A stretch of 24,102 nt of DNA from Pseudomonadota bacterium (GCA_043821645.1 JBDRCO010000004.1:1-24102); one strand, 5' to 3'. Shown: positions 355 to 24,102, counted from the first letter of the stretch. The notes: a model not told the origin generated them from the sequence alone. Made by a program: numbers and translations.

Positions 355-432
355 GTGCTTCGCGAGCCGCCTTCCGATCCTGCGTGGGGCCAACATGAGG
401 GTGCGCGACACCGCAGCGACGAGGACAGAGGT

Positions 433-1272
433 ATGACGTCCTCTGGATCGGATCGACGTGTGCATGCGCGGTACCTGGCGCCCTACCGCGTGGTGGTGAC
501 GCCATCCGAGGGCGCGCGCCTGGCCACCCTGACCGACAACCTGAGTGCTGGTGGCTTGATGCTGGCCACCAACCACGATCTGCCGCTCGAGCAGAATCTG
601 GACCTCACCATTCACCTTCCCGACGGGCAGCGAGCCGTGCGCTGCCACGGGCAGGTCGTGCGCCGGGCCCATCGCGAGCAGGACGGCCGCGAGGGCTTCG
701 GAGTGCAACTCGAGTTTGCACTACCGGCCGACGCGGTGGACTACCTCAAGCGGCTCAATGCCCTGCGCGCGGGTGAGGTCGATGTGGCGCCGCGGGCGTA
801 CCCGGTGCTGGTCGTCGAAGACAACGACATCCTCAGCGAACTCATGGCCACCTCGCTGCCACTGCTGTGGAAACGCCGCTACACCTACGGGCCTTTCCTG
901 GACATCGATCTGGCTCCGAGTGGTGATGTGGCCCTCGAGATGGTCAAGCACCGTCGCTACAACCTCGTCGTCACCGACGTCTACATGCCCAAGCTGGATG
1001 GCCGGGCTTTCATCACCGCCTTGCGCGCGGACGCTCGCACCCAGTCGATACCGGTGCTGGTCATCAGCGCCGGCGACCTGGCGGACGAAGTCATGGCCCT
1101 CGACGCGGATGGTTTTTTGCGCAAGCCCCTGCGCCTGCGCGTGCTCTTCGACGTGGTGCACCTGCTGCTCGCAGGGGCCATGCCAGAGGACGAATCCCTG
1201 GAGCAGACGACGGCTGCCGACGACGAGAGCGAGACCCCCCTCGAGCGCGCGCTGCGCGGTGTGTCGGACTGA
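433..1272 (+). CDS. PilZ domain - response regulator receiver fusion protein
   Basis: ATG at 433 follows AGAGGT (the ORF track uses GTG 355). PilZ motifs are RxxxR (RRVHAR) and D/NxSxxG (NLSAGG). Receiver motifs are VLVVED, TDVYMPKLDG, VISA and FLRKP. Confidence 0.88.
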   Translation: MTSSGSDRRVHARYLAPYRVVVTPSEGARLATLTDNLSAGGLMLATNHDLPLEQNLDLTIHLPDGQRAVRCHGQVVRRAHREQDGREGFGVQLEFALPADAVDYLKRLNALRAGEVDVAPRAYPVLVVEDNDILSELMATSLPLLWKRRYTYGPFLDIDLAPSGDVALEMVKHRRYNLVVTDVYMPKLDGRAFITALRADARTQSIPVLVISAGDLADEVMALDADGFLRKPLRLRVLFDVVHLLLAGAMPEDESLEQTTAADDESETPLERALRGVSD

Positions 1273-1274
1273 GC

Positions 1275-7242: not shown

Positions 7243-8757
<1,515 letters not shown>

Positions 8758-8824
8758 CCCCCGCGGGGGGCGACCCGACATCGCGGCGCGCGCTGCGTGG
8801 CGACGAGCGGGACGGAGGAAAGCG

Positions 8825-9337
8825 ATGCGAGTGAGAGCGCCGTGGATGCTGCTGCTGGTGGGGACTCTGATGGCGACGGGCTGCACGGACCCTCCTCTCG
8901 AGGGGGAGTGTGTTCCGGGCTTCGATTACACGGACAAGCCATCGATCTTCCCCAGTGTGTCGCCGTTCATCATGTGTCCGGTGTCGCCGGTGGCACCCAA
9001 CAACAAGATCAACGCCAACTTCCTGCTCAACAACTGCGGTCGCCAGCCGCTCACCATCGAGAGCGCCGCGATCAGCAATGCGGCGGCCCCGGAGGTGTTT
9101 GGCAACCTGCAGCTCGAGAAGACTGACGTGAATCCAGGTGATAGCGCTGCGGCGCTGTTCGTCTACACCGCTGTGGATACCCTGGAGCACCGCGGCACCA
9201 TCACGGTCAAGTCGAATGCCGACAACTTCCCCGAGCTGACCATCGATGTGGTGGTCCGCGCCGATGAGCCCTTTGACGGTGGCTTCTGCCCGCCGGTCCA
9301 GGGTGGCGGCACGGATGCGGGCGCCGAAGACATCTGA
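8825..9337 (+). CDS. Lipoprotein with Ig-like (ASH/choice-of-anchor-D-like) domain
   Basis: ATG 8825 after GGAGG. Lipobox-like MATGC, followed by the pattern LNNCGRQPLTI...VNPGDS...GTITVKSN. Confidence 0.72.
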   Translation: MRVRAPWMLLLVGTLMATGCTDPPLEGECVPGFDYTDKPSIFPSVSPFIMCPVSPVAPNNKINANFLLNNCGRQPLTIESAAISNAAAPEVFGNLQLEKTDVNPGDSAAALFVYTAVDTLEHRGTITVKSNADNFPELTIDVVVRADEPFDGGFCPPVQGGGTDAGAEDI

Positions 9338-9693: not shown

Positions 9694-12186
9694 TCAGCGC
9701 GCGCTGTCCGTGCAGTTGCGGTAGTACAGCGGCGCCGTGCAGTAACCGCAGAGGTCCGGGCAGTTGCAGCTCCAGCGCACGGTCATGGTGTACTGCATGG
9801 CCAGGTCGAAGTCGTTTTGCCCGTTGTCCGTGATCTCGATGATCCACGGGTTGCCTTCGCCGCACAGAGGCGCCACCAGGCAGTTCCCGCCGTCGGGTCC
9901 AAAGGTCACGTTGGGCAGCGCGTGGCTATCGTCGTCACGGAAGCAGCGTTCGCGGATGCACAGGTAGCTGTCCGGGCAGTCGGTGTGGCTGGCGCACTCC
10001 TCCGGAGGCTGGCACAGGCCGGCGCCGCTGTTACCACTGGGATTGTGGCAGGGGACCTCGCTGGGGTCGCACTCGAACACGTTGTCACAGCAGTCATGCC
10101 AGTCGGTGCAGGGGCGGGTGGATACGGTGTTGGCCCTGTCCGCGTCGACGAAGGAAGCGTAGAGGCGGCCCTGGCTGCCCGTGAACACGAACACGGCGGG
10201 CTCGATGCCGGTCGACGAGGCGCCACTGCCTGTGACGTCGATGTTCACCTCGATGTCACCGGGGGGCAGATTGAACGAGTAGTAGTCCCGATCACCCTCG
10301 AAGCTGAGCTGGCCCGTGGCGGTGTAGCTGCCCGTGCCGGCACCGGAGCAGTCCAGGCTGGTGTAGGGGTTGGAGCCCACGGATCCGCCGTCGATGGTGC
10401 CATTGTTGTCCCAGGGCAAGCAGCTGCCCCCGTTGTGCTCGTCATACCGGCACACGTCACCACTGCCACCGTCGTACATGGCGCAGTTGAGGGACGGCTC
10501 GGTGCAGGCCGGGATCCCGCTGTAGCTCCCGATCTGCGGGATCGCGAAGTTGCTGGCGTTGCACGAACGGATGGCCCCGGCGCTCGACGAGTACCGGGCT
10601 TCCCGGTTGAGGGCTGGCGGCAGGTCATTGGGCTCCCGGGTGTCGGGATCGGGGACCAGGTTGAAGCGGATGGTGTAGGGCTGCTGGTCGTGAAACACCT
10701 GCCCCTGGAACAGGCTCACGCCGACGAGGATGGGCTGGGCCTTGCGCACCGCGACTCCTGCGCGGGCTTGAGCGGCGCGAGGCACCCGGTTGGCATCGGC
10801 ACCCTGCAGGATCAGGCGCGACCAGCGACTCTCGCCGCAGTAGCTCCCCGGCATACACACCGGGTTCTGCTCGCCGTGGGCATCCCGGCAGCGGTCGGTG
10901 GTGGCGTTGAAGTTGTCGCAGCGGGCAAACTGCGTGGCGTTGGCAGGGCTCTCGGTGCAGCCCGTGGTGACGCTCATCGTGCCGCCGGAGGCCACACTCA
11001 GGCGCGCGTCGTAGATCTCCAGGCTGACGCCGACGCGATCCGGGTCCACACTCTCGGGGACCACGCCGTCTGCGGGCATGTTGAGCTCGACCTCGAGCAC
11101 GTAGCGGCCGTCGGCGCCGTCGATGGTGTACCAGTCGACGTCACCGTAGGTGGCGAGGTAGCCGTTGAGCGTCTGGCCCGAGTTGACCGAGGTCGCCGTG
11201 CCCGGGGCATCATTGCGGCCCGCGGGTTCGGTGTCGTTGCCGGGGCCGGTGTCGACGGTCAGGGTCAGGTCGTAGCGGCCGGTGGTGGTGTCGAAGTTGA
11301 AGCGATCGCCGCTGACATCCTCGACCAGCACCGTGACGGCGCCGCTGTGCGAGAAGGTCTGGCTCAGCTCCGGTCGGGCGGAATTGGCCTCGAAGCGGGT
11401 CACGGCCACTGCGCCGACGAAATCGTAGCTCCCGTCTGGCTTGGGCACCAGCTGGGTGTCGAGCAGTGCCTGGCCCTGGTCGTTGGCGATGTACAGGTGT
11501 GGTTGCCAGCCCAGCTCCGCGCCTCCCTGGAAGCGCACCTTGAGACGCATGGGCATGGCCGAGGCGATGCACTGGTAGTAGTCGCGGTCACCGCGCGTGC
11601 CCAGGTAGGCGGCCACGGCCTGGCCCCCGCACCCTCCCGTGGTCGCGGTCTGCGCCGTGTCGTTGGGTTCGTTGCTGTCCGGCTGCGGGCTGAGCGCGAT
11701 CTCCAGGTGGTAGGGGTTGGTGGGATCGCCGTCGTCACCGCCCTCGTCGCTGACCTCGATGATGTAGGTGGTGCTGGGCGAGACACCGAAGGCGCCGCGA
11801 ATGTCGGTGACGGCACCGGTGCCATTGGGATTGCTGAAGGCCATGGGGGTCGGCGTGCCGCTGGCGTCGAGCAGGGCCGCGCGCAGATCCACGCTGGTGA
11901 AGCCCGTGTCGTTGTAAAGATGCACCTCGAGGATGCCGTCGCTTGGCCCCGTGGTCACGCGGTAGTAGTCCTTGTCGTCGAAGCCCTGCGGACAGATCGT
12001 GCCGTCGACGATCTGGTCCGGCGTGATGTCCTGGGCGCTCTCGGCGTTGTACAGCGCGTCGATGACGCAGTCGACGTCGACATTGGTCGCGTCTTTCTTG
12101 GTGGTGACCTGGGTGTTGCAGTCCTCGCAACCCACGGCGAGGGCGAGGCCGAGCACCGAGAACGACAGGACTGCGCGCATCCTCAT
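9694..12186 (-). CDS. Large Cys-rich lipoprotein with repeated PPC-like domains (MtsF-like by position)
   Basis: ATG 12186 after AAGGAG. Lipobox LAVGC. Repeated EP-N-D...G-x-L...DxD[WY]Y units (DKDYY, DRDYY, DVDWY, DRDYY) and a Cys-rich C-terminal half. Lies directly downstream of the two vWA genes. Confidence 0.75.
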   Translation of the reverse strand: MRMRAVLSFSVLGLALAVGCEDCNTQVTTKKDATNVDVDCVIDALYNAESAQDITPDQIVDGTICPQGFDDKDYYRVTTGPSDGILEVHLYNDTGFTSVDLRAALLDASGTPTPMAFSNPNGTGAVTDIRGAFGVSPSTTYIIEVSDEGGDDGDPTNPYHLEIALSPQPDSNEPNDTAQTATTGGCGGQAVAAYLGTRGDRDYYQCIASAMPMRLKVRFQGGAELGWQPHLYIANDQGQALLDTQLVPKPDGSYDFVGAVAVTRFEANSARPELSQTFSHSGAVTVLVEDVSGDRFNFDTTTGRYDLTLTVDTGPGNDTEPAGRNDAPGTATSVNSGQTLNGYLATYGDVDWYTIDGADGRYVLEVELNMPADGVVPESVDPDRVGVSLEIYDARLSVASGGTMSVTTGCTESPANATQFARCDNFNATTDRCRDAHGEQNPVCMPGSYCGESRWSRLILQGADANRVPRAAQARAGVAVRKAQPILVGVSLFQGQVFHDQQPYTIRFNLVPDPDTREPNDLPPALNREARYSSSAGAIRSCNASNFAIPQIGSYSGIPACTEPSLNCAMYDGGSGDVCRYDEHNGGSCLPWDNNGTIDGGSVGSNPYTSLDCSGAGTGSYTATGQLSFEGDRDYYSFNLPPGDIEVNIDVTGSGASSTGIEPAVFVFTGSQGRLYASFVDADRANTVSTRPCTDWHDCCDNVFECDPSEVPCHNPSGNSGAGLCQPPEECASHTDCPDSYLCIRERCFRDDDSHALPNVTFGPDGGNCLVAPLCGEGNPWIIEITDNGQNDFDLAMQYTMTVRWSCNCPDLCGYCTAPLYYRNCTDSAR

Positions 12187-12229
12187 GTCAGGCTCCTTTG
12201 AAGGGACCACATCCCCCGGAGAGGATCGG

Positions 12230-13969
12230 TCAGGGCATCACACAGTGCAAGGTGGTGTCGGTGGCGCCGGGCACCCACAGGGCATCGGCCGGGATCTCCA
12301 GCTCGCCGGAGGCCGGTAGCTTGAACCGCCGGTCCTCGATGAACTGGGCCCGGGCGCAGCCCTGCTTGAACAGGGCGATCTCGTCAGGCTCGTCCAGCGG
12401 GACCTCGGTGACGTAGACGCCGATCTCGTTCCAGCCACGCTCCGCGCCCGGCGGCGCGTCGGTGGTGACCAGCCGGATGTTCTCGACCTCGTAGTGGTAG
12501 CACAGCTGGTTGCCCTTCATGCCGGTCTGCACCACGCGGTAGCGATAGCCCTCCTCGCTGAGGTGGGCGCTGTCATTGGTATGGGGATCCGAGTGCCAGC
12601 GGATCTCGTCGCCATTGGGTGCGCCGTCGAAGTCCACGTCGCTGAGCAGGTCGTCGAGGGTCAGGTAGGTGTCGTTGCGGTGCTCCAGGATGTCCGGGAC
12701 GCCGTCGAAGTCGGAATCGTACTTCTTGCTGAAGCTGCCAATGACGCGCTCCTCGCAGTTGCGCAGGCCGTCGATATCGTCGTCGGCGCGGTCGACTTCC
12801 AGGTCGCAGGCGGCATCTGCCGGATCGATGGGGTCGCGCCCCGAGTTGCGCAGCTGATACTCGAGCAGATCGTTGAACCCGTCACCGTCGGTGTCGAGAG
12901 AGAAAGGATCCGATCCCTGCAGGCGCTCACTCACGTCGTCGAGTCCGTCCCCATCCGAGTCGATGATGAAGGCACTCGACCAGGGTTTGGCACTCTTGTT
13001 GGTGATGATCAGGTTGTGCAACTTGAACTGGCGCTTGTAGCTCGATGTGTCGATGTGCAGGAAGTTGATGTCCTCCCCGTTCTCGAAGTCCCGGAAGGTG
13101 CCGTTGCCCACCTCGGCCACGTAGCGCATGAACAGGCGCGCCGCGGTGCGAACCTGCAGATCCGTGATGCCCGCCGACAGCAGCAGGGTGTGGAACTCGA
13201 GGGAGCGGATGCGGTGGATGCGCTTGAGGTTCATGATCTGCTTGAGCTGTTCGTACAGCGAGCAGTGCAGCGAGGGCGGCGGATCGAAGCGGCCGTAGCG
13301 CTCGAGGCAGGTCTGGGAGTTGGCGGCGCACTGGTCCGAGCCGTAGGGACACCACACGTCGAGATTGCCGACCTCGAGCCCGCCCAGGCCATCGGAGAAA
13401 AAGATGACCACGTAGCGGGCATTGCCCGCGGCGTCCTCGTCGATCTGGCGCAGGCGCTCCATGTCGTCGAACAGCACGCGGTAGACCACGCTCAGGGTGG
13501 CGGCGTAGTTGGTGTTGCCGCCGGACACCGAGCCCGAGGCCGACGCGATACCTCCGAGGATGGTGGTCTCGTCGTCGGTAAAACCCTCGACGCAGTTGGT
13601 TCCGGGCGGCGCGTAGTCGTCGCAACGCTGGGTCATCACCCGGGTCGCGGCGCCGAAGGCGATGACAGCGACCTCGACGCCACGGCGGCCCTGGATCGAC
13701 TCCTCGAAGGCATCCACCATGGCCTGCAGGCGCTGGGTCTCGCCGTTGACGTCCGGGGGATCCACGGCGTTGAGCGAACCCGACTGGTCGACCACGAACA
13801 GCACCTTGACCGGGTAGTTCAGGGTGTCCGGGTCGGTGGTGCAGAAGTCCCCCTTCACCTGCAACCTGTTGTCGAGCTTGCCCGGGTCCGGCGGCGGCAC
13901 GGGCACCAGCCCCTCCTGGGTACAGGTGGTGAGCAGCACCAGCCCCGTCATCAGCAGCATCATCCGCAT
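12230..13969 (-). CDS. vWA domain + bacterial TSP3 Ca-binding repeat lipoprotein (MtsE-like)
   Basis: Signal ends LLTTC. MIDAS motif in YPVKVLFVVDQSGS, plus TNY and VIFFSDG. Repeats DSDGDGLDD, DTDGDGFND, DSDFDGVPD and DVDFDGAPN. Paralogous to 14007-16121. Confidence 0.85.
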   Translation of the reverse strand: MRMMLLMTGLVLLTTCTQEGLVPVPPPDPGKLDNRLQVKGDFCTTDPDTLNYPVKVLFVVDQSGSLNAVDPPDVNGETQRLQAMVDAFEESIQGRRGVEVAVIAFGAATRVMTQRCDDYAPPGTNCVEGFTDDETTILGGIASASGSVSGGNTNYAATLSVVYRVLFDDMERLRQIDEDAAGNARYVVIFFSDGLGGLEVGNLDVWCPYGSDQCAANSQTCLERYGRFDPPPSLHCSLYEQLKQIMNLKRIHRIRSLEFHTLLLSAGITDLQVRTAARLFMRYVAEVGNGTFRDFENGEDINFLHIDTSSYKRQFKLHNLIITNKSAKPWSSAFIIDSDGDGLDDVSERLQGSDPFSLDTDGDGFNDLLEYQLRNSGRDPIDPADAACDLEVDRADDDIDGLRNCEERVIGSFSKKYDSDFDGVPDILEHRNDTYLTLDDLLSDVDFDGAPNGDEIRWHSDPHTNDSAHLSEEGYRYRVVQTGMKGNQLCYHYEVENIRLVTTDAPPGAERGWNEIGVYVTEVPLDEPDEIALFKQGCARAQFIEDRRFKLPASGELEIPADALWVPGATDTTLHCVMP

Positions 13970-14006: not shown

Positions 14007-16121
14007 TCACGGTACCGCACACACCCGCGACGGCAGACACTGCAAGCCGGCCGGGCAGTCGTCGTTGGACACGCAGGGCGGGAAGATGCCCCGGCAGTCC
14101 TTGCCGTCCATCACAGGTGGGATGAAGTTCCCCATCACGTCGTATCCGCCGTCGACCAGGTCCACCAGATCGTAGTCGGTGAACGGCGGTGTCAGCACCC
14201 CATTGGCAGGCTCCCGGAAGTCGGGTGCCACGTAGCGCGCCAGGTAGCAGGCCCCGCGCACCCTGGTCTCTCCCAGGGCGTCGTCGCTGGGCGACTCGAC
14301 CTCGTACACCTGGATCTGGTTGTAGCCGGGCAGGTCGATGTGTTGCGGCGCCGCGGGATCGTTGGGGATGCGGAAGTATCCCAGGGGCGTCTCCAGGGTG
14401 ATGTGGCGCATGCGCAGGTCAAAGCAGCCTCGCTGGTCCAGGGTCTCCAGGGTCTGCTCCAGGGTGTAGCGGAACGCCGGTGCGCGCCTCGCCACCGGAT
14501 CGTCCTCGCGCGGGTTCAGGTTGCGCAGCACCTCCTCGATGTTGCTGATGCCGTCGAAGTCCGCGTCGCCCTCGGCGTCCTGCACGCGCGGATCCAGGCC
14601 AAAGCGCAGCTCGAGCCCATCGGGGATGGTGTCGTGATCGCTGTCCGCCTCCAGCGGGTTGGTGCCGATCATGTCCTCCTCGCAGTCGCGGAGCATGTCG
14701 TTGTCGCTGTCCACGCTCTGGCCGAGATCGTCGGTGGGCGATAGCGAGGTGCCCGGGAAGCCGGACTGCGGGTCCATGCCGGGGGTCAGGGGAGGATTGT
14801 TGAAGGACATGCAGGGTGTGTAGGGGTGCAGGGCCTCGAGGGGATTCATGCCGAACTCGGCGTAGCGCACCTCGAGCAGGTCGGTGTAGCCGTCGCCATC
14901 GGTGTCGCGCAGCAGGGGATCGATGCCCAGCTCGTATTCCTCGTCGTCACTCAGGCCGTCACCGTCGGAGTCCAGGACCAGGCCTTCGGCGGTCGGTACC
15001 AGGTTGCGGTTGGTCACGAACACGCGGCGCATCTTGTTGGTGCGCTTGAGGGCGGTGAAGTCGAACTGCAAGAAGTCGATCTCCTCGGCAGAGCGCGCCT
15101 CGCGGTACTCGCCTCCGCCGCGTTCGGCCATCATGCGCATGAGCCGGGACTGGCGACAGTAGTTGGTGCCCACGATGGCCTGGATGCCCGCGGGCAGGGC
15201 GGCGTTCCACAGCATGATCGAGTGAAACTGGAACGCGCCCACGTCGAGCCCCTCGGTCAGCTCCACCATGTCGTCGAGCAGGTTGAGGATCTGGAACTCG
15301 CGGTTGTAGTTCTGCTCGGTGTTGAGGTCGGGGAACTGGTTTTGGAACCGGGCCGGGAAGCTCACCTGGAGTTCTGCCAGGTTGTTGCAGATGTTGAACT
15401 CCCACTGGCCTTCACAGACACGGCTGAGCTGCATGCCGATGTTGAGATCGGCCACCGTGGGCGGGTTGCACTGCGACGTCCCTGGCCCACCGCCAGCGGG
15501 ATAGACCTCGCCGAAGCTGCAGTCCATGGAGACGTCCGGGGTCGGCTTCTGCGCGGACTCGTCCTCGCAGATGCAGCACACGGGCGAGGGCTGGCCGTCG
15601 GAGAAGAACAGCACCACGTACTTGGTGTTGCGCGCCTCGGGACCCTGGGCGTCGATGCTGATCAGTTCAAAGGCCGAGCTCAGGGCGGCCTGGTAGTCGG
15701 TGAGCACCTCGGCCACCTGCAGCTGCGCGTCCAGGTTGACGGACTGGACCAGGCGGGCCGCGTCCCAGAACTCGCTGGCCTCGGGGAATTCCTTGACGAA
15801 GGTGTTGAACAGGATCAGGTGGAACATCACCGTGTCGTTGCCCACGTAGCGATTGAGCAGCTCGGTCACGGCGCGCACCCGGATCGCGCCTTCGTCGGTG
15901 AACTGCAGCGAGCCCGAGCCGTCGAGGATGAGCAGGATCTTGACCGGAAAGCGCTCTTCTTGCGGCTTGGCCGTGCAGAAGCTGCCCGCCAGCTCGACCT
16001 TGTTGTCCACCACCTTGGTCGTGACGAGGTCTGCGGGCTGGATCTCGCCCTTGGAGCAGGCCCCGAGCAGCGCCAGGGATGCGGCCAGGACCAGCAGCTG
16101 GCTATGGCGTGTCGTTGTCAT
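14007..16121 (-). CDS. mtsD: vWA domain + bacterial TSP3 repeat lipoprotein (MtsD-like cohesion protein)
   Basis: ATG 16121 after GAGGT. Lipobox LLGAC. MIDAS motif in FPVKILLILDGSGS, plus TDY and LFFSDG. DSDGDGLSDDEE-type repeats. The symbol rests on recalled resemblance and synteny with Myxococcus mtsC-D-E-F. Confidence 0.8.
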   Translation of the reverse strand: MTTTRHSQLLVLAASLALLGACSKGEIQPADLVTTKVVDNKVELAGSFCTAKPQEERFPVKILLILDGSGSLQFTDEGAIRVRAVTELLNRYVGNDTVMFHLILFNTFVKEFPEASEFWDAARLVQSVNLDAQLQVAEVLTDYQAALSSAFELISIDAQGPEARNTKYVVLFFSDGQPSPVCCICEDESAQKPTPDVSMDCSFGEVYPAGGGPGTSQCNPPTVADLNIGMQLSRVCEGQWEFNICNNLAELQVSFPARFQNQFPDLNTEQNYNREFQILNLLDDMVELTEGLDVGAFQFHSIMLWNAALPAGIQAIVGTNYCRQSRLMRMMAERGGGEYREARSAEEIDFLQFDFTALKRTNKMRRVFVTNRNLVPTAEGLVLDSDGDGLSDDEEYELGIDPLLRDTDGDGYTDLLEVRYAEFGMNPLEALHPYTPCMSFNNPPLTPGMDPQSGFPGTSLSPTDDLGQSVDSDNDMLRDCEEDMIGTNPLEADSDHDTIPDGLELRFGLDPRVQDAEGDADFDGISNIEEVLRNLNPREDDPVARRAPAFRYTLEQTLETLDQRGCFDLRMRHITLETPLGYFRIPNDPAAPQHIDLPGYNQIQVYEVESPSDDALGETRVRGACYLARYVAPDFREPANGVLTPPFTDYDLVDLVDGGYDVMGNFIPPVMDGKDCRGIFPPCVSNDDCPAGLQCLPSRVCAVP

Positions 16122-16194
16122 AAGCACCTCGTTGCCACATGTGAACGGCGCAGCAGGCTCCCTGGGGAGCGAAGACCACGCCGGACAAGTCTAC

Positions 16195-16211
16195 TGCGAA
16201 AAGCGATCCAG
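16195..16211 (-). promoter_or_regulatory. sigma54 -24/-12 promoter for the mtsD-E-F-like operon
   Basis: Minus strand CTGGATCGCTTTTCGCA has GG-N10-GC spacing, about 75 nt upstream of the start codon. Confidence 0.7.
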
Positions 16212-16235
16212 GTCGTGCACCTCACTCATGATAAC

Positions 16236-16255
16236 TGCAAGACACAGGTCTTGCA
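16236..16255. promoter_or_regulatory. Perfect inverted repeat, candidate operator
   Basis: TGCAAGAC-ACAG-GTCTTGCA. A second inverted repeat, GACCTCG-TT-CGAGGTC, follows at 16259-16274. Confidence 0.5.
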
Positions 16256-16310
16256 CGAGACCTCGTTCGAGGTCCCGGCGAGAGGTCGCGGCAGGGGGCG
16301 TGTGATGCAC

Positions 16311-16342
16311 AAAAAGCGACGCCCCCTTGAGGGGGGCGTCGC
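16311..16342 (-). terminator. Rho-independent terminator after mtsC-like copy 1
   Basis: Minus-strand RNA GCGACGCCCCC-CUCAA-GGGGGCGUCGC-UUUUU. Confidence 0.88.
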
Positions 16343-16384
16343 AACAGAGGTTCAGAGTCTATCCAGCAGGTGCTGGCGGAGAAG

Positions 16385-17668
16385 CTAGCGGCGGCGGCGG
16401 ATGCCGAGCAGGGCCAGGCCGGCCAGGACGAGCAGGCTCGCCGAGCCGCTGGTCATGGCGCTGCAACCCAGGGCAGCACCCTCGACCACGATCTTCATGG
16501 TCTGCTTGTCGCTCTGCAGGCCCGGGTACAGGTCGTCGTCGAAGACCAGGTTGGTCTGCAGCTCGATCTGGTACTCACCGGGGGTGCGGGCCACGAACAC
16601 GGACTCGCGGTCACGCTGGTAGTGGAACTCCCAGGGCGAGGAGGTGTTGACGGTGCCGGCCGGGTTCTCGACGTCGAAGCTGGAGCCGGCGGGGGACGCG
16701 GTCACCTTCCAGGCGTACTGGGTCGGGGCATTGGGGCGGTTGGTGAAGACGCGCAGGCGGATGCGCTCGCCGGTGACGACGCCAAGGTCCGGACCAGGGC
16801 GGCCCTGGAAGCGGCCCGTCGGGTTGAGGCAGCGACCCTGGTCGGGGCTGTCCACCACGAAGCAGAAGCTCGAGTCGCAGCTGTCGCCGAAGCCGTCACG
16901 GTCAGCGTTGAGCTGGTTGCTGTTGGGGGTCAGGCGGCAGTTGTCCAGCAGGTTGGGCACACCGTCGTTGTCGAGGTCGGCGTCGCAGGCGTCGCCCAGT
17001 CCGTCCATGTCGTTGTCGTTGTTGTCCTCGGAGGCGACGAAGGGGCACAGGTCCAGGCTGTCCGGCAGGCCGTCGTCGTCGGCGTCACGGTCGCACAGGT
17101 CGTTGTTGGGATCGGTCACGCCAGCCAGCAGCGGGCAGGGGTCGCTGACATCGGGCAGGCCGTCGTTGTCGTCGTCGTCGTCGCAGACGTTGCCGCGACC
17201 GTCGAGGTCGTTGTCGTCAAAGGCGGGATCCTGGACCGGGTTGGGGACCAGGGAGCAGCTGTCGATGTTGTTGGGGACGCCGTCGTTGTCCGCGTCGTCG
17301 TCACAGGCGTTGCCCAGCATGTCGCCGTCAGCATCGAACTGTTCGGGGTTGGCATGGCCAGCGCAGTTGTCACAGGCATCGCCGAAGCCGTCGCCGTCCG
17401 CGTCCGCCTGATCCGGATTCACGGCGAACGGGCAGTTATCGAAGTCGTCCTCCCAGCCGTCGATGTCGAAGTCATCGGCGTACTGGTAGGTGTCGCCCAT
17501 ATCGGTGTTGTTGATCAGGATGGAACCGCCGCCGCAACCGCAGCCGCCGCCACCGCTCTCATACGGAGTACCGCACGCGCCGCCGCCGCACTCGGCCTGC
17601 GCCTGGGCATTGACGCTGACGAACAGCCCCAGTGCCGCGAAAGCAAATCCTGCAAAAAACTTCTTCAT
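16385..17668 (-). CDS. mtsC: TSP type-3 repeat MYXO-CTERM surface protein, MtsC-like copy 1
   Basis: Signal peptide, then ECGGGACGTP...CGCGGGSILINNTD, many DxDxDGxGDACD/DNCP repeats and a PKD-like beta domain. The C-terminus GCS-hydrophobic-RRRR fits MYXO-CTERM. The symbol is from recalled similarity. Confidence 0.85.
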   Translation of the reverse strand: MKKFFAGFAFAALGLFVSVNAQAQAECGGGACGTPYESGGGGCGCGGGSILINNTDMGDTYQYADDFDIDGWEDDFDNCPFAVNPDQADADGDGFGDACDNCAGHANPEQFDADGDMLGNACDDDADNDGVPNNIDSCSLVPNPVQDPAFDDNDLDGRGNVCDDDDDNDGLPDVSDPCPLLAGVTDPNNDLCDRDADDDGLPDSLDLCPFVASEDNNDNDMDGLGDACDADLDNDGVPNLLDNCRLTPNSNQLNADRDGFGDSCDSSFCFVVDSPDQGRCLNPTGRFQGRPGPDLGVVTGERIRLRVFTNRPNAPTQYAWKVTASPAGSSFDVENPAGTVNTSSPWEFHYQRDRESVFVARTPGEYQIELQTNLVFDDDLYPGLQSDKQTMKIVVEGAALGCSAMTSGSASLLVLAGLALLGIRRRR

Positions 17669-17758
17669 AATCCTCTCCTCCTCTTTCGAACCCTGGTTTT
17701 CTCTCTACTCTGTGCGCGGCCCGGTCTCTCTATACGGGAACGCGCAAGACGAAGTCAT

Positions 17759-17775
17759 TGCGAGAACCGATCCAG
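17759..17775 (-). promoter_or_regulatory. sigma54 promoter of mtsC-like copy 1
   Basis: Minus strand CTGGATCGGTTCTCGCA (GG-N10-GC). Confidence 0.75.
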
Positions 17776-17861
17776 ATCGGTGGCACTGTACAAGAAACTT
17801 TTATTTACGGGAAGTTAGGCAATTTCCAGAGACCTCAAGTAAGAGCCAGGCCTACACCGGG

Positions 17862-17965
17862 TGGTGACTGGAGTCCACAGAAGTGTGGAGTCTGGACCTC
17901 GAGCAAGCGTGCGATCTGTGGAGTCGAGACACCAGGGGAGTCCAGAGTGGGGACTGCAGTCGCCA
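17862..17965. repeat. Array of four 18-bp imperfect palindromes, candidate enhancer boxes
   Basis: TGGTGACTGGAGTCCACA (17862), TGTGGAGTCTGGACCTCG (17884), TGTGGAGTCGAGACACCA (17917) and TGGGGACTGCAGTCGCCA (17948). Confidence 0.7.
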
Positions 17966-17970
17966 TATAG

Positions 17971-17997
17971 AAAACGAGGGCCCGATGGGGCCCCCGT
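17971..17997 (-). terminator. Rho-independent terminator after mtsC-like copy 2
   Basis: Minus-strand RNA ACGGGGGCCC-CAUC-GGGCCCUCGU-UUU, with one G-U pair. Confidence 0.7.
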
Positions 17998-18029
17998 GTA
18001 GAGGTTAAACGATATGTTGGAGGGTGCTG

Positions 18030-19316
<1,287 letters not shown>

Positions 19317-19375
19317 CTGCTCCTCCTACACTCTGTGACCCCGTCGGCGGGGGTAATGACTCTGCAACACCTCAT

Positions 19376-19392
19376 CGCAAGAACTGATCCAG
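19376..19392 (-). promoter_or_regulatory. sigma54 promoter of mtsC-like copy 2
   Basis: Minus strand CTGGATCAGTTCTTGCG (GG-N10-GC). Matches the copy-1 promoter at 18 of 21 nt over the extended element. Confidence 0.75.
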
Positions 19393-19453
19393 CGCGCTGT
19401 AACCGGGGCAAGCCCTGGAGATCAGACGACGATGCTCCGCAGACCGATGCTGG

Positions 19454-19536
19454 TGTCGGCACTGGACGACAACCGTGGGGACTCGCCCCCCCAGATTTCT
19501 TCCATCTCAGTGGTGCGAGGAGGACTCGAGTCCCCA
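19454..19536. repeat. Candidate enhancer boxes between mtsC-like copy 2 and the glycosyltransferase
   Basis: TGTCGGCACTGGACGACA (19454, weak), TGGGGACTCGCCCCCCCA (19476) and GGAGGACTCGAGTCCCCA (19519). Confidence 0.6.
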
Positions 19537-19645
19537 TCTTCGTATCCTGTCGGTCTGCAAAGCAGGCAGGTCCGTCACCATTCTGCAAAACTGGTGGCAA
19601 CCAACGGGTCTGCGTTCGCGGGTTCGACATGGTATCGATGAGCCC

Positions 19646-20875
19646 ATGCGCATCCTGGTCTCGACCGTGGGCAGCCGTGGCGATGTGCAGCCCATGCTCG
19701 CGCTCGCCCTCGAGCTGCAGGGCCGCGGCCATCAGCTGCTGTTTGCGGCGCCGCCGGAGAACCAGGCCTGGGTCGAGGGCCGGGATCTGCGCTTCCACGC
19801 CGTGGGCGTGGATCTGATGAAAGCGGTCGAGGGCATCTACACCCACCGCGTGGGCCTGGGGACGCTCACGCGCTTTGTTCGCGATCGCATTGCCGAGCAG
19901 TTCGATGACCTGTTGCCCCTGGCGGACGCGTTCGACTTGTACCTGGGCGGCGGTCTGCAGCTCGCCCTGCCCAGTGTGGCCGAGGCGCGCCAGCGACCTT
20001 ATGCCTATACCGCCTTCAGCCCGTGCCTGCTGCGTTCGTCGCAGCACGCGCCGGTGTTCTTCGCCGCGCAGCGACTTCCTCGGTGGTTGAACCGGATCCT
20101 GTGGGCGATGTACGTGGGCGCGGGCACCCGGGCCACCCGCGGCATGCTGGGGCAGCAGCGCCATCGCCTGGGGCTGCCACCCACACCCGACATCTACCGC
20201 TACATGTTCGAGCCCGCGGCATTGCTGCTCGCCTTCGATCCCGTGCTCGGACCACTCCCCGACGATGTCGAGGCCCGAGCTGTGAGCACGGGCTTCTTTT
20301 TTCTCGACGACGACACGCCCGTGCCCGACGCCGTGTCGCGCTTTGTCGCCCAGGGCGCTGCGCCGCTGTACGTGGGGCAGGGCAGCATGTGGCTGCGCGA
20401 CGCGCCCGCCGTGAACCGCGTGCTGCTCGACGTGCAGCAGCAGCTCGGCTGCCGCCTGATCGTGGGGCGTGGCCGCTCCGGGCTGGGTGAGGGGATGCAC
20501 GGTGAGGGTGTGCTGGTGGTCGACGCAGTGAACCATGCCGCCCTGTTCCCTCGCTGCGCGGCCGTCGTGCACCACGGCGGAGCTGGTACCACGGCCACGG
20601 CTCTGCGCGCCGGCGTGCCGCAGCTGGTGACGCCGCATTCGGCGGATCAGTTCTACTGGGCGCGGCGCGTTCATGAGCTGGGCCTGGGGCCCGCACCGCT
20701 GGCCTTTGGCTCGCTGTCCACCCGGCCCCTGGTCGCCAGGCTCCGCGCTGTGCTCGAGGACGGTGCGTGTGCGGACCGGGCGCGGGTCGAGAGTGAGCGC
20801 CTGGCGCAGACCAGCGGCACGGCCGTCGCCGCCCGGGCGCTGGAAACTCTCGTCGAGGGCGGTACCTGGGGCTAA
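19646..20875 (+). CDS. GT1-family (GT-B) glycosyltransferase, sterol/glycopeptide GT-like
   Basis: MRILVSTVGSRGDVQPMLALA N-terminal motif, VHHGGAGTT-ALRAGVPQ and DQFYWARRV. Confidence 0.93.
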   Translation: MRILVSTVGSRGDVQPMLALALELQGRGHQLLFAAPPENQAWVEGRDLRFHAVGVDLMKAVEGIYTHRVGLGTLTRFVRDRIAEQFDDLLPLADAFDLYLGGGLQLALPSVAEARQRPYAYTAFSPCLLRSSQHAPVFFAAQRLPRWLNRILWAMYVGAGTRATRGMLGQQRHRLGLPPTPDIYRYMFEPAALLLAFDPVLGPLPDDVEARAVSTGFFFLDDDTPVPDAVSRFVAQGAAPLYVGQGSMWLRDAPAVNRVLLDVQQQLGCRLIVGRGRSGLGEGMHGEGVLVVDAVNHAALFPRCAAVVHHGGAGTTATALRAGVPQLVTPHSADQFYWARRVHELGLGPAPLAFGSLSTRPLVARLRAVLEDGACADRARVESERLAQTSGTAVAARALETLVEGGTWG

Positions 20876-20906
20876 AAAAAACGAGGGTCCCGCGGGGGAC
20901 CCTCGT
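20874..20906 (-). terminator. Rho-independent terminator after mtsC-like copy 3
   Basis: Minus-strand RNA ACGAGGGUCCC-CCGC-GGGACCCUCGU-UUUUUUU. The plus-strand A-tract overlaps the GT stop codon TAA. Confidence 0.88.
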
Positions 20907-20934
20907 CGAGGCATGAACGCCTCGGGGTTCGACT

Positions 20935-22260
20935 CTAGCCGCGGCGGCGCAGCCCCACCAGGGCCAGGCCCAGGAGGACCAGCAGGCCGGCGCTCGAGCC
21001 ACTCGCGGTCAGGGCGCTGCAGCCCAGGGCCTCACCGGTGACCACGATGGTCATGGTCTGCTTGTCCGAGGTCAGGCTGGGGTACATCTCGTCGTCGAAC
21101 ACCAGGTTGGTCTGCAGCTCGACCTCGTACTCACCCGGGGTGCGCGCCACGAAGCTGGCCACGCGCTCCTTCTGGTAGTGGAACTCCCAGGGCGACGAGA
21201 AGTTGACCGTACCGTTCGAGTTCTCGATCTCGGCGTCAGCACCGGCGGGGCGACGGGTCACCTTCCAGGCGTAGCGGGTCGGCGCATTGGGGCGGTTGGT
21301 GAACATGCGCAGGCGGATGCGCTCGCCGGTCAGGATGGTCATGTCCGGGCCCGGGCGGCCCTGGAAGCGGCTGGCCGGGTTGAGGCAGCGGCCGCCGTCG
21401 GCGCTGTCGACCACGAAGCAGAAGCTGGAGTCGCAGGCGTCGCCCAGGCCGTCGCGGTCGGCGTTGAGCTGGTTGGTGTTGGCGGTCAGGCGGCAGTTGT
21501 CGATGGTGTTGGGCACGCCGTCGTTGTCGAGGTCCAGGTCGCAGGCGTCGCCGATGCCGTCCAGGTCGCTGTCGCGGTTGTCCTCGGCGGCGGTCATGGC
21601 ACACAGGTCGATGCTGTCCGGGATGCCGTCGTTGTCGCTGTCCATGTCGCAACGGTCGTCGCTGCCATCGGTCACCCCGGCGAGCAGCGGGCAGGGGTCG
21701 GTGACATCAGGCAGGCCATCCGCGTCGTCGTCGTCGTCACAGGCATTGCCCAGGCCGTTGCCGCTGGTGTCGAGCTGACCCGGGTTGGGCTGCAGCCAGC
21801 AGTTGTCCATCTGGTTGGACACGCCGTCGCCGTCGGCATCGTCGTCGCAGGCATTGCCCACGAAGTTGCCGTTGGCGTCGGCCTGGTCGGGATTGCTGTG
21901 GCTGGGGCAGTTGTCGCAGGCGTCACCGAAGCCGTCGCCGTCCGAGTCTTCCTGGGCCGCGTTCACGGCGAAGGGGCAGTTGTCATAATCGTCTTCCCAG
22001 CCGTCGACGTCGAAGTCGTCGGCGTACTGGTAGGTATCACCCATGTCCGTGTTCGCGATCAGGATGCTGCCGGCCACGCACACGCCGCCGTTGCAGATGC
22101 AGTCTCCGCCCTCGACACAGGGATTGGAGCCGCCGCTTTCGTAGGGCGTGCCGCAGGCGCCACCACCGCACTCGGCCTGGGCCATGGCGGTATTCGCCAG
22201 GACCAGGGCCAGGGCCGCGAGGCTACAGTTCGCCAGGACCGTCAGGGTTCGTCGTGCCAT
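20935..22260 (-). CDS. mtsC: TSP type-3 repeat MYXO-CTERM surface protein, MtsC-like copy 3
   Basis: Likely start is ATG 22260 after AAGGAGG (MARRTLTVLANCSLAALALVLANTAMA-QAEC). Colinear paralog with a variant N-terminal Cys loop. Ends GCS...LGLALVGLRRRG. Confidence 0.85.
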   Translation of the reverse strand: MARRTLTVLANCSLAALALVLANTAMAQAECGGGACGTPYESGGSNPCVEGGDCICNGGVCVAGSILIANTDMGDTYQYADDFDVDGWEDDYDNCPFAVNAAQEDSDGDGFGDACDNCPSHSNPDQADANGNFVGNACDDDADGDGVSNQMDNCWLQPNPGQLDTSGNGLGNACDDDDDADGLPDVTDPCPLLAGVTDGSDDRCDMDSDNDGIPDSIDLCAMTAAEDNRDSDLDGIGDACDLDLDNDGVPNTIDNCRLTANTNQLNADRDGLGDACDSSFCFVVDSADGGRCLNPASRFQGRPGPDMTILTGERIRLRMFTNRPNAPTRYAWKVTRRPAGADAEIENSNGTVNFSSPWEFHYQKERVASFVARTPGEYEVELQTNLVFDDEMYPSLTSDKQTMTIVVTGEALGCSALTASGSSAGLLVLLGLALVGLRRRG

Positions 22261-22316
22261 GGGTTCCTCCTTGATAACGCTCGAAGCGTGGTTTCGTTCG
22301 TGTCGAGGAGGGATAA

Positions 22317-22333
22317 AGCGAGAGCCGTGCCAG
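22317..22333 (-). promoter_or_regulatory. sigma54 promoter of mtsC-like copy 3
   Basis: Minus strand CTGGCACGGCTCTCGCT has a consensus -24 TGGCAC and GG-N10-GC spacing. An AT-rich tract lies immediately upstream (about 22336-22397). Confidence 0.85.
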
Positions 22334-22415
22334 CTTGAAAAAATTAAAAAAAACACACAAAAACAAGATGATAGACATTTCGAATAACTCAAAAATCGAG
22401 ATGTAGGGAAATGTC

Positions 22416-22488
22416 TGGGGACTCTGGCCCCCAGTTTCGGGCGTGTGGACTCCACACCTCAGCGACGAGTTGCGGAGTGCAGTCCCCA
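22416..22488. repeat. Candidate enhancer boxes shared by divergent sigma54 promoters
   Basis: TGGGGACTCTGGCCCCCA (22416), a central box around the palindrome GTGTGGACTCCACAC (about 22439-22461) and TGCGGAGTGCAGTCCCCA (22471). Confidence 0.7.
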
Positions 22489-22676: not shown

Positions 22677-24102
22677 ATGTCCCGAATCGAGCGCGGGCTT
22701 GGATCGCTGATGCTGGCTGCAGCGTGCCTGGTCCTGGTCGGCGGCGAGTGCCCTGGCGGCAGCGACAGGCCTGACTTCGACGGCGGCCTCGACGGCGGCG
22801 GGCGCGATGTCAGCGTGGTGCAGGTCAAGCTCTACGACTGGAACATCAGCCGGGGCTTCACCTCGGAGTCTCCGTCGCCAGTGGCACCCCTGGCCACGGC
22901 GGTGGGCCCGGGCGGTCGCATCGCGGTGGGCTATTACAAGGCGCCAGACCCGGTGGTGCCCTACCACTGCGTCACCAATCTGGGCGAGAGCGACATCGAG
23001 GACATCGACCTCAAGCTGGCGCGCTTCGATGGCGCCGCCTGGACCACCGATCTCGTCGAGACCGTGCACTCCCCCGACGCCTATGCGACGCTCTACGACG
23101 CGGCGGGCGGGTTGCAGATGGTGTACATGGCCGGCCCCACCACGGGGACCTACTGCGGGGTGTCGCAGCTCTTTGGTCGCTACATCAACGGGGCCGGGCT
23201 CGGATCCCCGACCACCCTGGTGGCCAACTCGGCGACCGGTGACGCCTGCCGGCTGATGCAGAACGCCTGCAATGCAGGAGACAACGCGGGGCGGTTCCCG
23301 AGCCTCGAGCTGCTGCCCGACGGGCGCATGCTGCTGGCCTACCAGGACACCCACTTCAACTTTGGCCAGCAGACCGACATCGAGGGCAGTGACCTCGAGG
23401 TGATCGTGGGCACCGCGCCGCTGGCAGCCGGTGGGCGCGCCTGCCTGGACGACTCGAGCGGAGCCGGAGCCTTTCTGGACACCTTCGTGGGCATGGGGGG
23501 CCGGCCCGCGGTGGCTTACTGGGTTCCGGTCACCCACAACTTCAACAGCACGGGCTGCCTGGACAACCCACCGGTGGCCGAGGGCACCTCGTACAACTGG
23601 AAGCGCGGCATGTACGTGGCACAGCTGCGTGACGACGATACCTGGGACAATCTCTACATCGCGGACATCATCGTGAACCAGCGCCTGGCCGCGGCCTATA
23701 CCGAGAGCGATGGCTACATGGTGGCCTATCGCCTGGGCAGTTCCCTGGCCGCGTACTTCTCGGCCGACGGAGTGACCTGGCAGAGCCGCAACATCGACAG
23801 CGCCGGTCGAAATGGCGTGTCACCCTCGGCCCTGGTCGACGGGCAGGGACGCATCCTCATCGCCTATGGCAAGTGCTCCAACTCGCCTGGCGCGAGCTGT
23901 GCGCCGGCCCAGGATGCCGTGCGCATCGCGGTGCTGAGCGGTGGCCAGTGGAAGACCGAGGACGTGGTCAACGACAGTGACGAGCTCGACGGTACCGAGG
24001 TGCACCTGCACCTGGATCCGGACAGCGGCAACCCGGTCGTCGTGTACCGCGCCGCCGCGTCCCAGCAGGTCATGATCGCGCGCGGCACGCCGCACACCAA
24101 CT
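22677..24102 (+). CDS. Exported, probably lipoprotein, beta-propeller protein with a BNR/Asp-box (3'-truncated; absent from the ORF track)
   Basis: AGGAGG precedes ATG 22677. My translation stays open to the window end (about 475 codons): MSRIERGLGSLMLAAACLVLVGGECPGG...GPGGRIAVGYY...PDGRMLLAYQD...SADGVTW...DGQGRILIAYG...DSGNPVVVY. Confidence 0.85.
   Translation, partial: MSRIERGLGSLMLAAACLVLVGGECPGGSDRPDFDGGLDGGGRDVSVVQVKLYDWNISRGFTSESPSPVAPLATAVGPGGRIAVGYYKAPDPVVPYHCVTNLGESDIEDIDLKLARFDGAAWTTDLVETVHSPDAYATLYDAAGGLQMVYMAGPTTGTYCGVSQLFGRYINGAGLGSPTTLVANSATGDACRLMQNACNAGDNAGRFPSLELLPDGRMLLAYQDTHFNFGQQTDIEGSDLEVIVGTAPLAAGGRACLDDSSGAGAFLDTFVGMGGRPAVAYWVPVTHNFNSTGCLDNPPVAEGTSYNWKRGMYVAQLRDDDTWDNLYIADIIVNQRLAAAYTESDGYMVAYRLGSSLAAYFSADGVTWQSRNIDSAGRNGVSPSALVDGQGRILIAYGKCSNSPGASCAPAQDAVRIAVLSGGQWKTEDVVNDSDELDGTEVHLHLDPDSGNPVVVYRAAASQQVMIARGTPHTN

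Follow-up and report, generated by a model that had tools for sequence, protein, structure and literature searches.

The mts locus, whose genes are named mtsA to mtsF, was reportedly described by Zhang et al. in 2007 (J Bacteriol 189:7937) in Myxococcus fulvus HW-1 and M. xanthus. Here, we analyse a locus of this type in an uncultured Myxococcota genome, that of a myxobacterium (GCA_043821645.1). The window, i.e., the whole stretch of DNA analysed, is an entire contig of 24,102 bases (JBDRCO010000004.1) from a genome of 7.07 Mb (140 contigs, completeness 94.7%). It carries an mts (cell–cell cohesion) locus in which mtsC is present in three copies. The explanation towards which we lean, and which we regard as reasonably plausible, is that mtsC underwent a lineage-specific tandem expansion to three paralogs, each of which would have kept the ancestral regulatory kit, resulting in a co-induced mixture of isoforms. 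Two papers have passages on the closest proteins of Myxococcus. Those of PMC11980579 concern the processing of MYXO-CTERM proteins and state that “MstC” acts in cohesion, social (S) motility, and development, whereas those of PMC12475490 report that GspD translocates MYXO-CTERM proteins and identify MtsC as MXAN_1334. The sorting route that we assume for the MtsC copies is the one supported by these passages.

The locus resembles the mts locus of Myxococcus in that its mtsC genes pass the MtsC model and are followed by the same order of genes for vWA-TSP3, vWA-TSP3, and PPC-like lipoproteins. The Myxococcus-like mtsC genes also have a GG-N10-GC element upstream, with 3 mismatches. The differences are of several kinds: there are three mtsC genes here instead of one, a foreign-looking glycosyltransferase gene lies in the array, the vWA proteins fall well short of the cut-off for MtsD, and a terminator followed by a separate putative sigma-54 promoter stands between mtsC and the mtsD-like gene. 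Conversely, the Myxococcus-like locus has an MtsD-related gene of 602 amino acids (aa) and a gene of 781 aa before mtsC, neither of which has a counterpart here. Tandem arrays of mtsC exist in other Myxococcota (2 to at least 4 matches in 42 of 195 genomes, often as tandem pairs), but the tree indicates that the duplications were independent, and the inserted glycosyltransferase gene is present only here among the loci examined. TraA and other MYXO-CTERM proteins, which are sorted by the myxosortase MrtX according to the passages of PMC11980579, share with MtsC the tripartite C-terminal tag and the presumed sorting route. However, TraA is a polymorphic single-copy recognition receptor, whereas the diversity observed here is one of paralogs in a single genome and a role in recognition is hypothetical. 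The family, the type of locus, the sorting tag, and the fold are already known, and the locus holds no new kind of system.

The three mtsC genes are on the minus strand, at positions 16385-17668 (copy 1, 427 aa), 18030-19316 (copy 2, 428 aa), and 20935-22260 (copy 3, 441 aa, counted from the ATG that follows GGAGG). Copy 1 adjoins the mtsD-like gene and copy 3 a divergent gene that may encode a beta-propeller. All three proteins exceed the cut-off of the MtsC equivalog model of NCBIfam (NF047638; cut-off 350 bits), with 513.0 bits for copy 1, 508.3 bits for copy 2, and 484.4 bits for copy 3, and they are the only matches above this cut-off in the whole genome. They align end to end at 72-76% identity, and their coding DNA is ~80% identical. 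Each has 5-6 stretches of TSP_3 repeats (PF02412; 142-148 bits), with 6 in copy 1, and the Asp and Cys columns of the calcium repeats are invariant over 33 MtsC proteins. The copies differ in sequence in the calcium repeats and in one loop of the immunoglobulin (Ig)-like domain. Of the columns that at least 90% of 30 other MtsC proteins conserve, 113 in all, 5 are changed in copy 1, 7 in copy 2, and 10 in copy 3; copy 1 is the most conservative and copy 3 the most derived. Copies 2 and 3 have in common the changes D114N, D154S, and D156N in the calcium repeats, positions at which at least 27 of the 30 other MtsC proteins keep Asp. In copy 3, the N-terminal Gly/Cys-rich part further carries an insertion. 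The invariant Cys, the hydrophobic segment, and the RRR(R/G) tail of the C-terminus are present in all three copies. The MYXO-CTERM model (TIGR03901; cut-off 20 bits), which has 44 matches in the genome, scores 21.2 bits for copy 1 and 21.0 bits for copy 2.

The AlphaFold2 model of copy 1, built from a 33-row alignment, has a mean predicted local distance difference test (pLDDT) score of 77. It comprises a signal peptide, a disordered Gly/Cys-rich stretch (residues 18-63), a long “wire” of calcium repeats without regular structure, an Ig-like beta-sandwich (289-396), and a C-terminal helix (410-426). The sandwich resembles Ig-, PapD-, and MSP-like domains in Foldseek searches, whose top matches for the whole model are the signature domains of thrombospondin-2, COMP, and thrombospondin-1 (PDB 1yo8, 3fby, and 2rhp). 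What they share is the series of calcium-binding type-3 repeats and their paired cysteines (28-30% identity over 355-387 columns), although the template modelling (TM) scores are low (0.21-0.22). The C-terminal domain of MtsC is a small Ig/PapD/MSP-like sandwich of ~110 residues, whereas that of thrombospondin is the L-lectin-like TSP C-terminal domain. MtsC also differs from thrombospondin and COMP in being a bacterial surface protein that is lipid-anchored and bears a MYXO-CTERM tag.

Each mtsC copy appears to be a self-contained monocistronic unit with a sigma-54-type promoter, paired boxes, and an intrinsic terminator. This was the core of a first-pass annotation of the same stretch, which had described three TSP3 paralogs with their own boxes, promoter, ribosome-binding site, and terminator, and all these elements were found again in the sequence. 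A GGAGG-type ribosome-binding site precedes the start codon of each copy, and a GG-N10-GC element of the sigma-54 −24/−12 type lies 46-80 nucleotides (nt) upstream of it, always on the minus strand: at 17760-17774 for copy 1 (TGGATCGGTTCTCGC), at 19377-19391 for copy 2 (TGGATCAGTTCTTGC), and at 22318-22332 for copy 3 (TGGCACGGCTCTCGC, with one mismatch to TGGCAC-N5-TTGCW). The mtsD-like gene is preceded by a similar element at 16196-16210 (minus strand; TGGATCGCTTTTCGC), which is of the type found in copies 1 and 2. The promoter of copy 1 is identical to that of copy 2 at 18 of 21 positions, as previously claimed (1 of 300 shuffles reached this score). The pattern TGG-N6-TCTYGC has 4 matches in the window, 3 of which lie upstream of the mtsC copies, one each (0 of 100 shuffles reached 4), and the 3 sites of CTGGATCNNTTYTYGCR in the 7.07-Mb genome are those that precede the mtsD-like gene and copies 1 and 2 (reversed control: 0). 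The canonical TGGCAC-N5-TTGCW, with up to 2 mismatches, shows no enrichment over the whole window (14 matches for 11.45 expected). We compared the regions upstream of 34 mtsC genes, taken from the window and from related genomes, using the antisense of the same stretches as a control. In sense orientation, 26 of the 34 have a GG-N10-GC element that differs from TGGCAC-N5-TTGC at no more than 2 positions; in antisense orientation, 2 of the 34 do. The genome encodes the corresponding sigma factor, RpoN (424.5 bits; cut-off 277). Two metatranscriptome runs from the study of run X1, which may be the source sample, hold next to no sequence words of the window.

The three units end in hairpins followed by T-runs on the minus strand. 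The terminator of copy 1 (16316-16342; 11-pair stem with 10 G-C pairs) separates this gene from the mtsD-like operon. Those of copies 2 and 3 are at 17974-17997 and 20880-20907, the latter with a 12-pair stem at which the converging glycosyltransferase gene also ends. The sequence AAAACGAGGG was said to be common to these last two terminators. Its only two occurrences in the window, at 17971-17980 and 20878-20887, are indeed at the terminators of copies 2 and 3 (no match in any of 100 shuffles), and the hairpins of the two can be aligned over 29 columns (a score reached by 0 of 300 shuffles). The first-pass annotation concluded from such motifs that whole units had been duplicated. The short motifs are compatible with this but are not proof of it. 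Local alignment of the flanks outside the coding regions of the three units recovers nothing beyond these motifs. By a hand count, the promoter of copy 1 is identical at 18 of 22 positions to that of its ortholog in a sister-family genome (G003), making it as similar to this one as to that of copy 2. Because the synonymous divergence (dS) between copies is near 0.5, neutral flanks are expected to be unrecognisable, and the conservation of short motifs therefore fits functional constraint.

Two palindromic boxes lie upstream of each promoter. Their positions are 17863-17878 and 17949-17964 for copy 1 (centres ~103 and ~189 nt upstream of the −24/−12 element), 19477-19492 and 19520-19535 for copy 2 (~100 and ~143 nt upstream of the promoter), and 22417-22432 and 22472-22487 for copy 3 (~100 and ~155 nt upstream). 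The two boxes of copy 3 enclose a GTGTGGAGTCCACAC palindrome. From centre to centre, the proximal box is 100-103 nt away from the promoter in all three units. The boxes of copy 2 sit in the intergenic region that it has in common with the divergent glycosyltransferase gene. The box pattern GGGGACTSSAGTCCCC, with up to 3 mismatches, has 6 matches in the 24 kb, all in the three mtsC upstream regions and two per gene (1.34 expected; 0 of 100 shuffles reached 6), although this count is not independent because the pattern was derived from these very regions. Independent support comes from the presence of the same box in relatives. Two boxes (GGGGACTCCACTCCAC and GGGGACTTCACTCCAC) lie 44 nt apart upstream of mtsC in G003, and one (GGCGACTCCACTCCAC) lies upstream of one mtsC copy of another sister-family genome, G002. 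All 4 exact matches of GGGGACTNNASTCCNC in the four genomes searched are upstream of mtsC genes, this pattern having been designed after those sites had been seen. The boxes upstream of mtsC are real. As a separate observation, of the few box-like sites elsewhere in the genome, one (G000:C70:15312-15327, 2 mismatches) adjoins a TSP3-repeat gene (C70:15418-15867, 899-aa frame).

The history of the copies was studied with a maximum-likelihood tree of 35 MtsC sequences. The three copies group with two fragments from a sister-genus genome (G001) in a single clade (support 100/100), in which copies 2 and 3 are sisters (100/99) despite the glycosyltransferase gene between them and copy 1 has the shortest branch. 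G001 has two distinct mtsC copies, 72% identical over 151 overlapping residues, one by a homolog of the secreted protein that here diverges from copy 3 and the other by the mtsD-like gene, i.e., in the positions of copies 3 and 1; both contigs end within mtsC. The tree also includes a pair of duplicates in G002, one in G045, one common to G005 and G051, and one in G032, which shows that mtsC was duplicated independently in several families. To survey the phylum, we searched 355 Myxococcota genomes at least 90% complete (G257 unpublished) for matches at E ≤ 1e-80, scoring up to 4 candidates per genome. There are at least 266 mtsC matches in 195 of the 355 genomes, where matches are not strictly copy numbers: 153 genomes have 1 match, 20 have 2, 15 have 3, and 7 have at least 4. 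Hence, 42 of the 195 matching genomes have at least 2 matches, and 22 have at least 3. Tandem pairs are frequent, e.g., in G005, G051, G032, G067, G068, G069, and G259. The well-studied Myxococcus-like genera have a single copy, and the large genera with genomes of ~9-13 Mb have one match each; many genomes of the Myxococcus family have 3-4 matches. In the literature on mtsC, the mts locus, and MXAN_1333 to MXAN_1336, the Myxococcus items that name MtsC are a preprint and its later version, and we found nothing on copy number or sigma-54 control. Because multi-copy mtsC is common in relatives, the three-copy locus is best described as an ordinary gene-family expansion, and it would be one of many independent mtsC duplications in the phylum. 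The first-pass annotation had named a multi-copy mtsC that is already common and co-expressed at fixed ratios as an observation that would speak against its reading; the 42 genomes bear out the first part of this, with the Myxococcus-like genera as the single-copy part of the picture.

One rival to this scenario is pure dosage, in which three redundant copies provide more of an abundant surface protein and the sequence differences are neutral drift. We regard it as a fair rival, though one of rather low probability. The copies are indeed alike in architecture, in type of box, and in the spacing between box and promoter, and recent duplicates in other lineages can be nearly identical: the terminal branches are 0.034 and 0.024 for the near-identical pair of G002, and 0.05 and 0.014 for that of G045. 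The copies of the window are different in this respect. Pairwise dS values of 0.50-0.58 and ratios of nonsynonymous to synonymous divergence (dN/dS) of 0.30-0.42 indicate that all three are old and under purifying selection. Two further points stand against dosage, namely the changes that copies 2 and 3 share at otherwise conserved Asp and the maintenance of two distinct copies in the sister genus. Between copies 1 and 2, DNA identity rises from ~80% overall to 93-95% in codons 46-90 (17400-17535 of the window in copy 1). Elsewhere, copy 2 is nearer to copy 3, and the stretch may be a tract of gene conversion.

The expansion into a co-induced isoform mixture would work as follows. Each copy would be transcribed as a monocistronic unit, from a sigma-54 −24/−12 promoter with paired boxes, the proximal one ~100 nt upstream, to an intrinsic terminator. 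One enhancer-binding protein would bind the boxes and turn on the three copies together, the candidate being the FHA-type protein encoded 1 kb beyond the mtsF-like gene, and a fourth sigma-54 promoter of like type would drive the mtsD/E/F-like operon. Going by the protein families and the papers cited above, the pre-protein would be exported via its signal peptide, the TSP3 repeats would fold around calcium, and the MYXO-CTERM tag (invariant Cys, membrane helix, and Arg tail) would be processed by a myxosortase, leading to display at the surface. The cell would then show a mixture of three isoforms, with copy 1 keeping the conserved residues of the family and copies 2 and 3 providing isoforms that lack three otherwise conserved Asp of the calcium repeats. 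These isoforms may act in cohesion together with the MtsD/E-like vWA lipoproteins, which contain a metal ion-dependent adhesion site (MIDAS), and with the MtsF-like protein. Since each copy keeps the regulatory kit, the three isoforms are probably induced together and displayed as a mixture. Divergence among the copies would have been mild.

Besides the way in which the box pattern was derived, a number of observations weigh against this scenario. The elements of copies 1 and 2 have TGGATC in place of TGGCAC, which results in 3 and 2 mismatches at the 10 specified positions, and taken alone they are weak sigma-54 sites, equalled by 22% and 6.5% of the shuffles, respectively; we assign them to sigma-54 because of the comparison across genomes. 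The promoter of copy 3, with its TGGCAC and AT-rich spacer, is unlike those of copies 1 and 2, and the copies may therefore respond differently. The number of box sites in the whole genome, 12 at up to 2 mismatches, is not above the 15 of the reversed-pattern control; the signal therefore lies in their clustering at mtsC, since 4 of these 12 sites, including both sites with at most 1 mismatch, are upstream of mtsC copies. GGGGACT-type boxes are absent upstream of the mtsD-like promoter, where other palindromes are present; this operon may answer to a regulator other than that of the mtsC copies. The gene of the FHA activator is not beside mtsC in the G002 and G003 loci that we fetched, which makes the link between this activator and the boxes a guess. 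Regarding sorting, the first-pass annotation had assigned the MYXO-CTERM tag to all three copies, and this stands for copies 1 and 2, which are over the cut-off, but copy 3, which ends in RRRG, is not reached by the model at E ≤ 0.01. The myxosortase core model (NF040914; cut-off 100 bits) finds two sub-threshold fragments in the genome, of 72 and 67 bits; it also matches in 9 of 14 control genomes. Physical contact between MtsC and the vWA lipoproteins is hypothetical: the complex prediction for residues 24-706 of the mtsD-like protein and residues 100-400 of MtsC copy 1, run with alignments, returned no answer (score 0.00) and is uninformative either way.

The first-pass annotation had proposed a different use for the three copies, as interchangeable subunits expressed in alternation on a shared MtsD/E/F platform, thereby changing the surface identity or adhesion of the cell. 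The common lipoprotein platform is a hypothesis from the gene neighbourhood. In favour of such a use, each copy has its own promoter and terminator and the mtsD/E/F-like genes are present once each. The distinct promoter of copy 3 and the location of the variation in the calcium repeats and the Ig-like loop would also suit such a switch. Yet it is unlikely. There are no silent promoterless copies, as all three have a promoter, a ribosome-binding site, and an intact full frame, and the common type of box at like distance argues for co-induction over switching. No long inverted repeats surround any promoter or gene; the search for features of phase or antigen variation at the locus revealed only short (14-34 nt), mostly imperfect inverted repeats, in coding sequence or in the boxes. 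Multi-copy mtsC, being common, is also not a special device of this genome. Finally, an assembly artefact, by which variants of a single mtsC from different strains would have been joined in one metagenomic contig, is very improbable, because, even if the window is a whole 24.1-kb contig among 140 and the sister-genus assembly breaks inside mtsC on both sides, the copies differ at ~20% of their DNA and have unique, unalignable flanks, contigs of run X1 span 17376-18377 (copy 1/copy 2) and 19198-19747 (copy 2/glycosyltransferase), pieces of each of the three upstream regions recur with 0-4 differing letters in runs X2-X4 from other studies, and two distinct copies occupy the corresponding flanking positions in G001.

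The minus strand carries nearly all genes from 9.7 to 22.3 kb of the window, in the order (from high to low coordinates) mtsC copy 3, glycosyltransferase (plus strand), copy 2, copy 1, vWA-TSP3, vWA-TSP3, and PPC-like. The mtsD-, mtsE-, and mtsF-like genes are present once each behind the terminator of copy 1; the scan for terminators and the search with the MtsD model agree with the earlier description of these lipoprotein genes as single-copy and insulated by a terminator. They encode a vWA-TSP3 lipoprotein of 706 aa (14007-16127, minus strand; Pfam VWA_2 and TSP3_bac), a second one of 579 aa (12230-13969, minus strand; VWA_2, VWA, and TSP3_bac), placed by synteny, and a lipoprotein of 838 aa with repeated PPC-like modules (9694-12210, minus strand; weak PPC match). 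The orthology expected by the first-pass annotation holds for MtsC, as seen above, but for MtsD by position only: against the MtsD equivalog model (NF047639; cut-off 800 bits), the 706-aa and the 579-aa proteins score 155.0 and 168.9 bits, and nothing in the genome exceeds the cut-off. The two proteins, mutual paralogs, are MtsD/E-like only in their domains and their location, and we use the names mtsD/E/F by position. NCBIfam has no MtsE or MtsF models beside those of MtsC and MtsD (NF047640 and NF047637 are the unrelated AgmC_N and lipo_CC0125).

We identify the locus as mts, despite the low scores of the vWA proteins, because of synteny. The order mtsC, vWA, vWA, PPC-like is kept in 6 fetched loci of 4 families, including a Myxococcus-like locus, and was found in the G002, G003, G005, G051, G032, and G045 loci. 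The Myxococcus-like genome G012 has mtsC followed by a true MtsD (1328 bits), an MtsD-related protein of 609 aa, and a protein of 801 aa; the latter matches the 838-aa mtsF-like protein (E = 1e-8), with PPC-like repeats in common. Compared with its orthologs by position in G002 and G003, the mtsF-like protein shows 27-29% identity. Nine proteins at the MtsD position all keep the MIDAS residues (DxSxS, T, and D). The protein at the mtsE position in one other family is ~1,064-1,087 aa long, ~500 aa longer than here (L021:13569-16829, L022:4231-7491, and L024:10351-13542), and may be a fusion with the product of the next gene.

The operon of mtsD/E/F-like genes seems to have its own sigma-54-type promoter behind the terminator of copy 1 in the family of the host. 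G001 shows a like layout, with a strong terminator and then TGGCGT-N5-TTGC before the mtsD-like gene, whereas in G002 and G003 mtsC and the mtsD-like gene are only 110 nt apart, with a GC-rich hairpin in this spacer. The palindromes upstream of the element in the window (16211-16300, minus strand) are TGCAAGAC-N4-GTCTTGCA and GACCTCG-AA-CGAGGTC. Beyond the mtsF-like gene lie a small lipoprotein gene (8744-9337) and the gene of the FHA-domain sigma-54 enhancer-binding protein (7243-8757, plus strand; 504 aa; FHA, Sigma54_activat, and HTH_8), which has a GSYTGA variant of the GAFTGA loop. Homologs of this activator (42-53% identity) are encoded directly beside or upstream of mtsC in L021, L022, and L024, of one other family.

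Copies 2 and 3 are not adjacent, since a glycosyltransferase gene of the GT1/MGT family lies between them on the opposite strand (19646-20875, plus strand; 410 aa). The protein matches Pfam EryCIII-like_C and Glyco_transf_28 and scores 160 bits with the Rgt model (cut-off 800). The G+C content of the gene is 0.707, compared with 0.65-0.68 for its neighbours. It has no homolog by tblastn in 29 related mts loci, and for this reason we consider it probably an insertion into the array. A role as an MtsC-modifying enzyme was considered and set aside: by family, the enzyme is of the cytoplasmic small-molecule GT1/MGT type, and it is absent from the other mts loci examined. The first-pass annotation had overlooked this gene, as well as the promoter of the mtsD-like operon, the sub-cut-off MtsD scores, and the fact that the flanks cannot be aligned.

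On the other side of the array, the gene that diverges from copy 3 (22677-24101, plus strand) encodes a secreted protein and is interrupted by the contig end. No Pfam family matched this protein; a protein atlas gives a BNR/sialidase-like beta-propeller, as a lead only. Its homologs adjoin mtsC in G001, G002, G003, and loci of family f4, and those in L029, L027, L031, L021, L022, and L024 make it a conserved neighbour of mtsC in three families (26-50% identity). At the far end of the window, positions 355-1272 and 1275-3020 (plus strand) hold a PilZ and receiver-domain protein, then a GH3-family protein (acyl-acid amido synthetase type) and a HAD hydrolase, a trio (355-3020) that is unusual for a bacterium. 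The Rfam scan of the window returned zero family matches.

The expansion of mtsC with a co-induced mixture of isoforms can be extended further, to a speculative model of low probability. The isoform set could be a combinatorial code for calcium-dependent cohesion or recognition that drives the repeated duplication of mtsC, with one FHA sigma-54 activator acting via GGGGACT-type box pairs ~100 nt upstream.

MtsC is among the few MYXO-CTERM surface proteins with a known social role. This role, in cohesion, S motility, and development, is known only through the genetics of Myxococcus, and all studies of mtsC have dealt with a single copy. What is new here is that mtsC was duplicated recurrently and independently outside the model genera, where it is often multi-copy. 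A sigma-54-type element upstream of mtsC is a phylum-wide feature, and the paired box at fixed distance from the mtsC promoter is one at the level of the class; the glycosyltransferase gene apparently lodged in the array is also new. Together, these points make it possible to test how cohesion is controlled and whether mixtures of isoforms tune adhesion.

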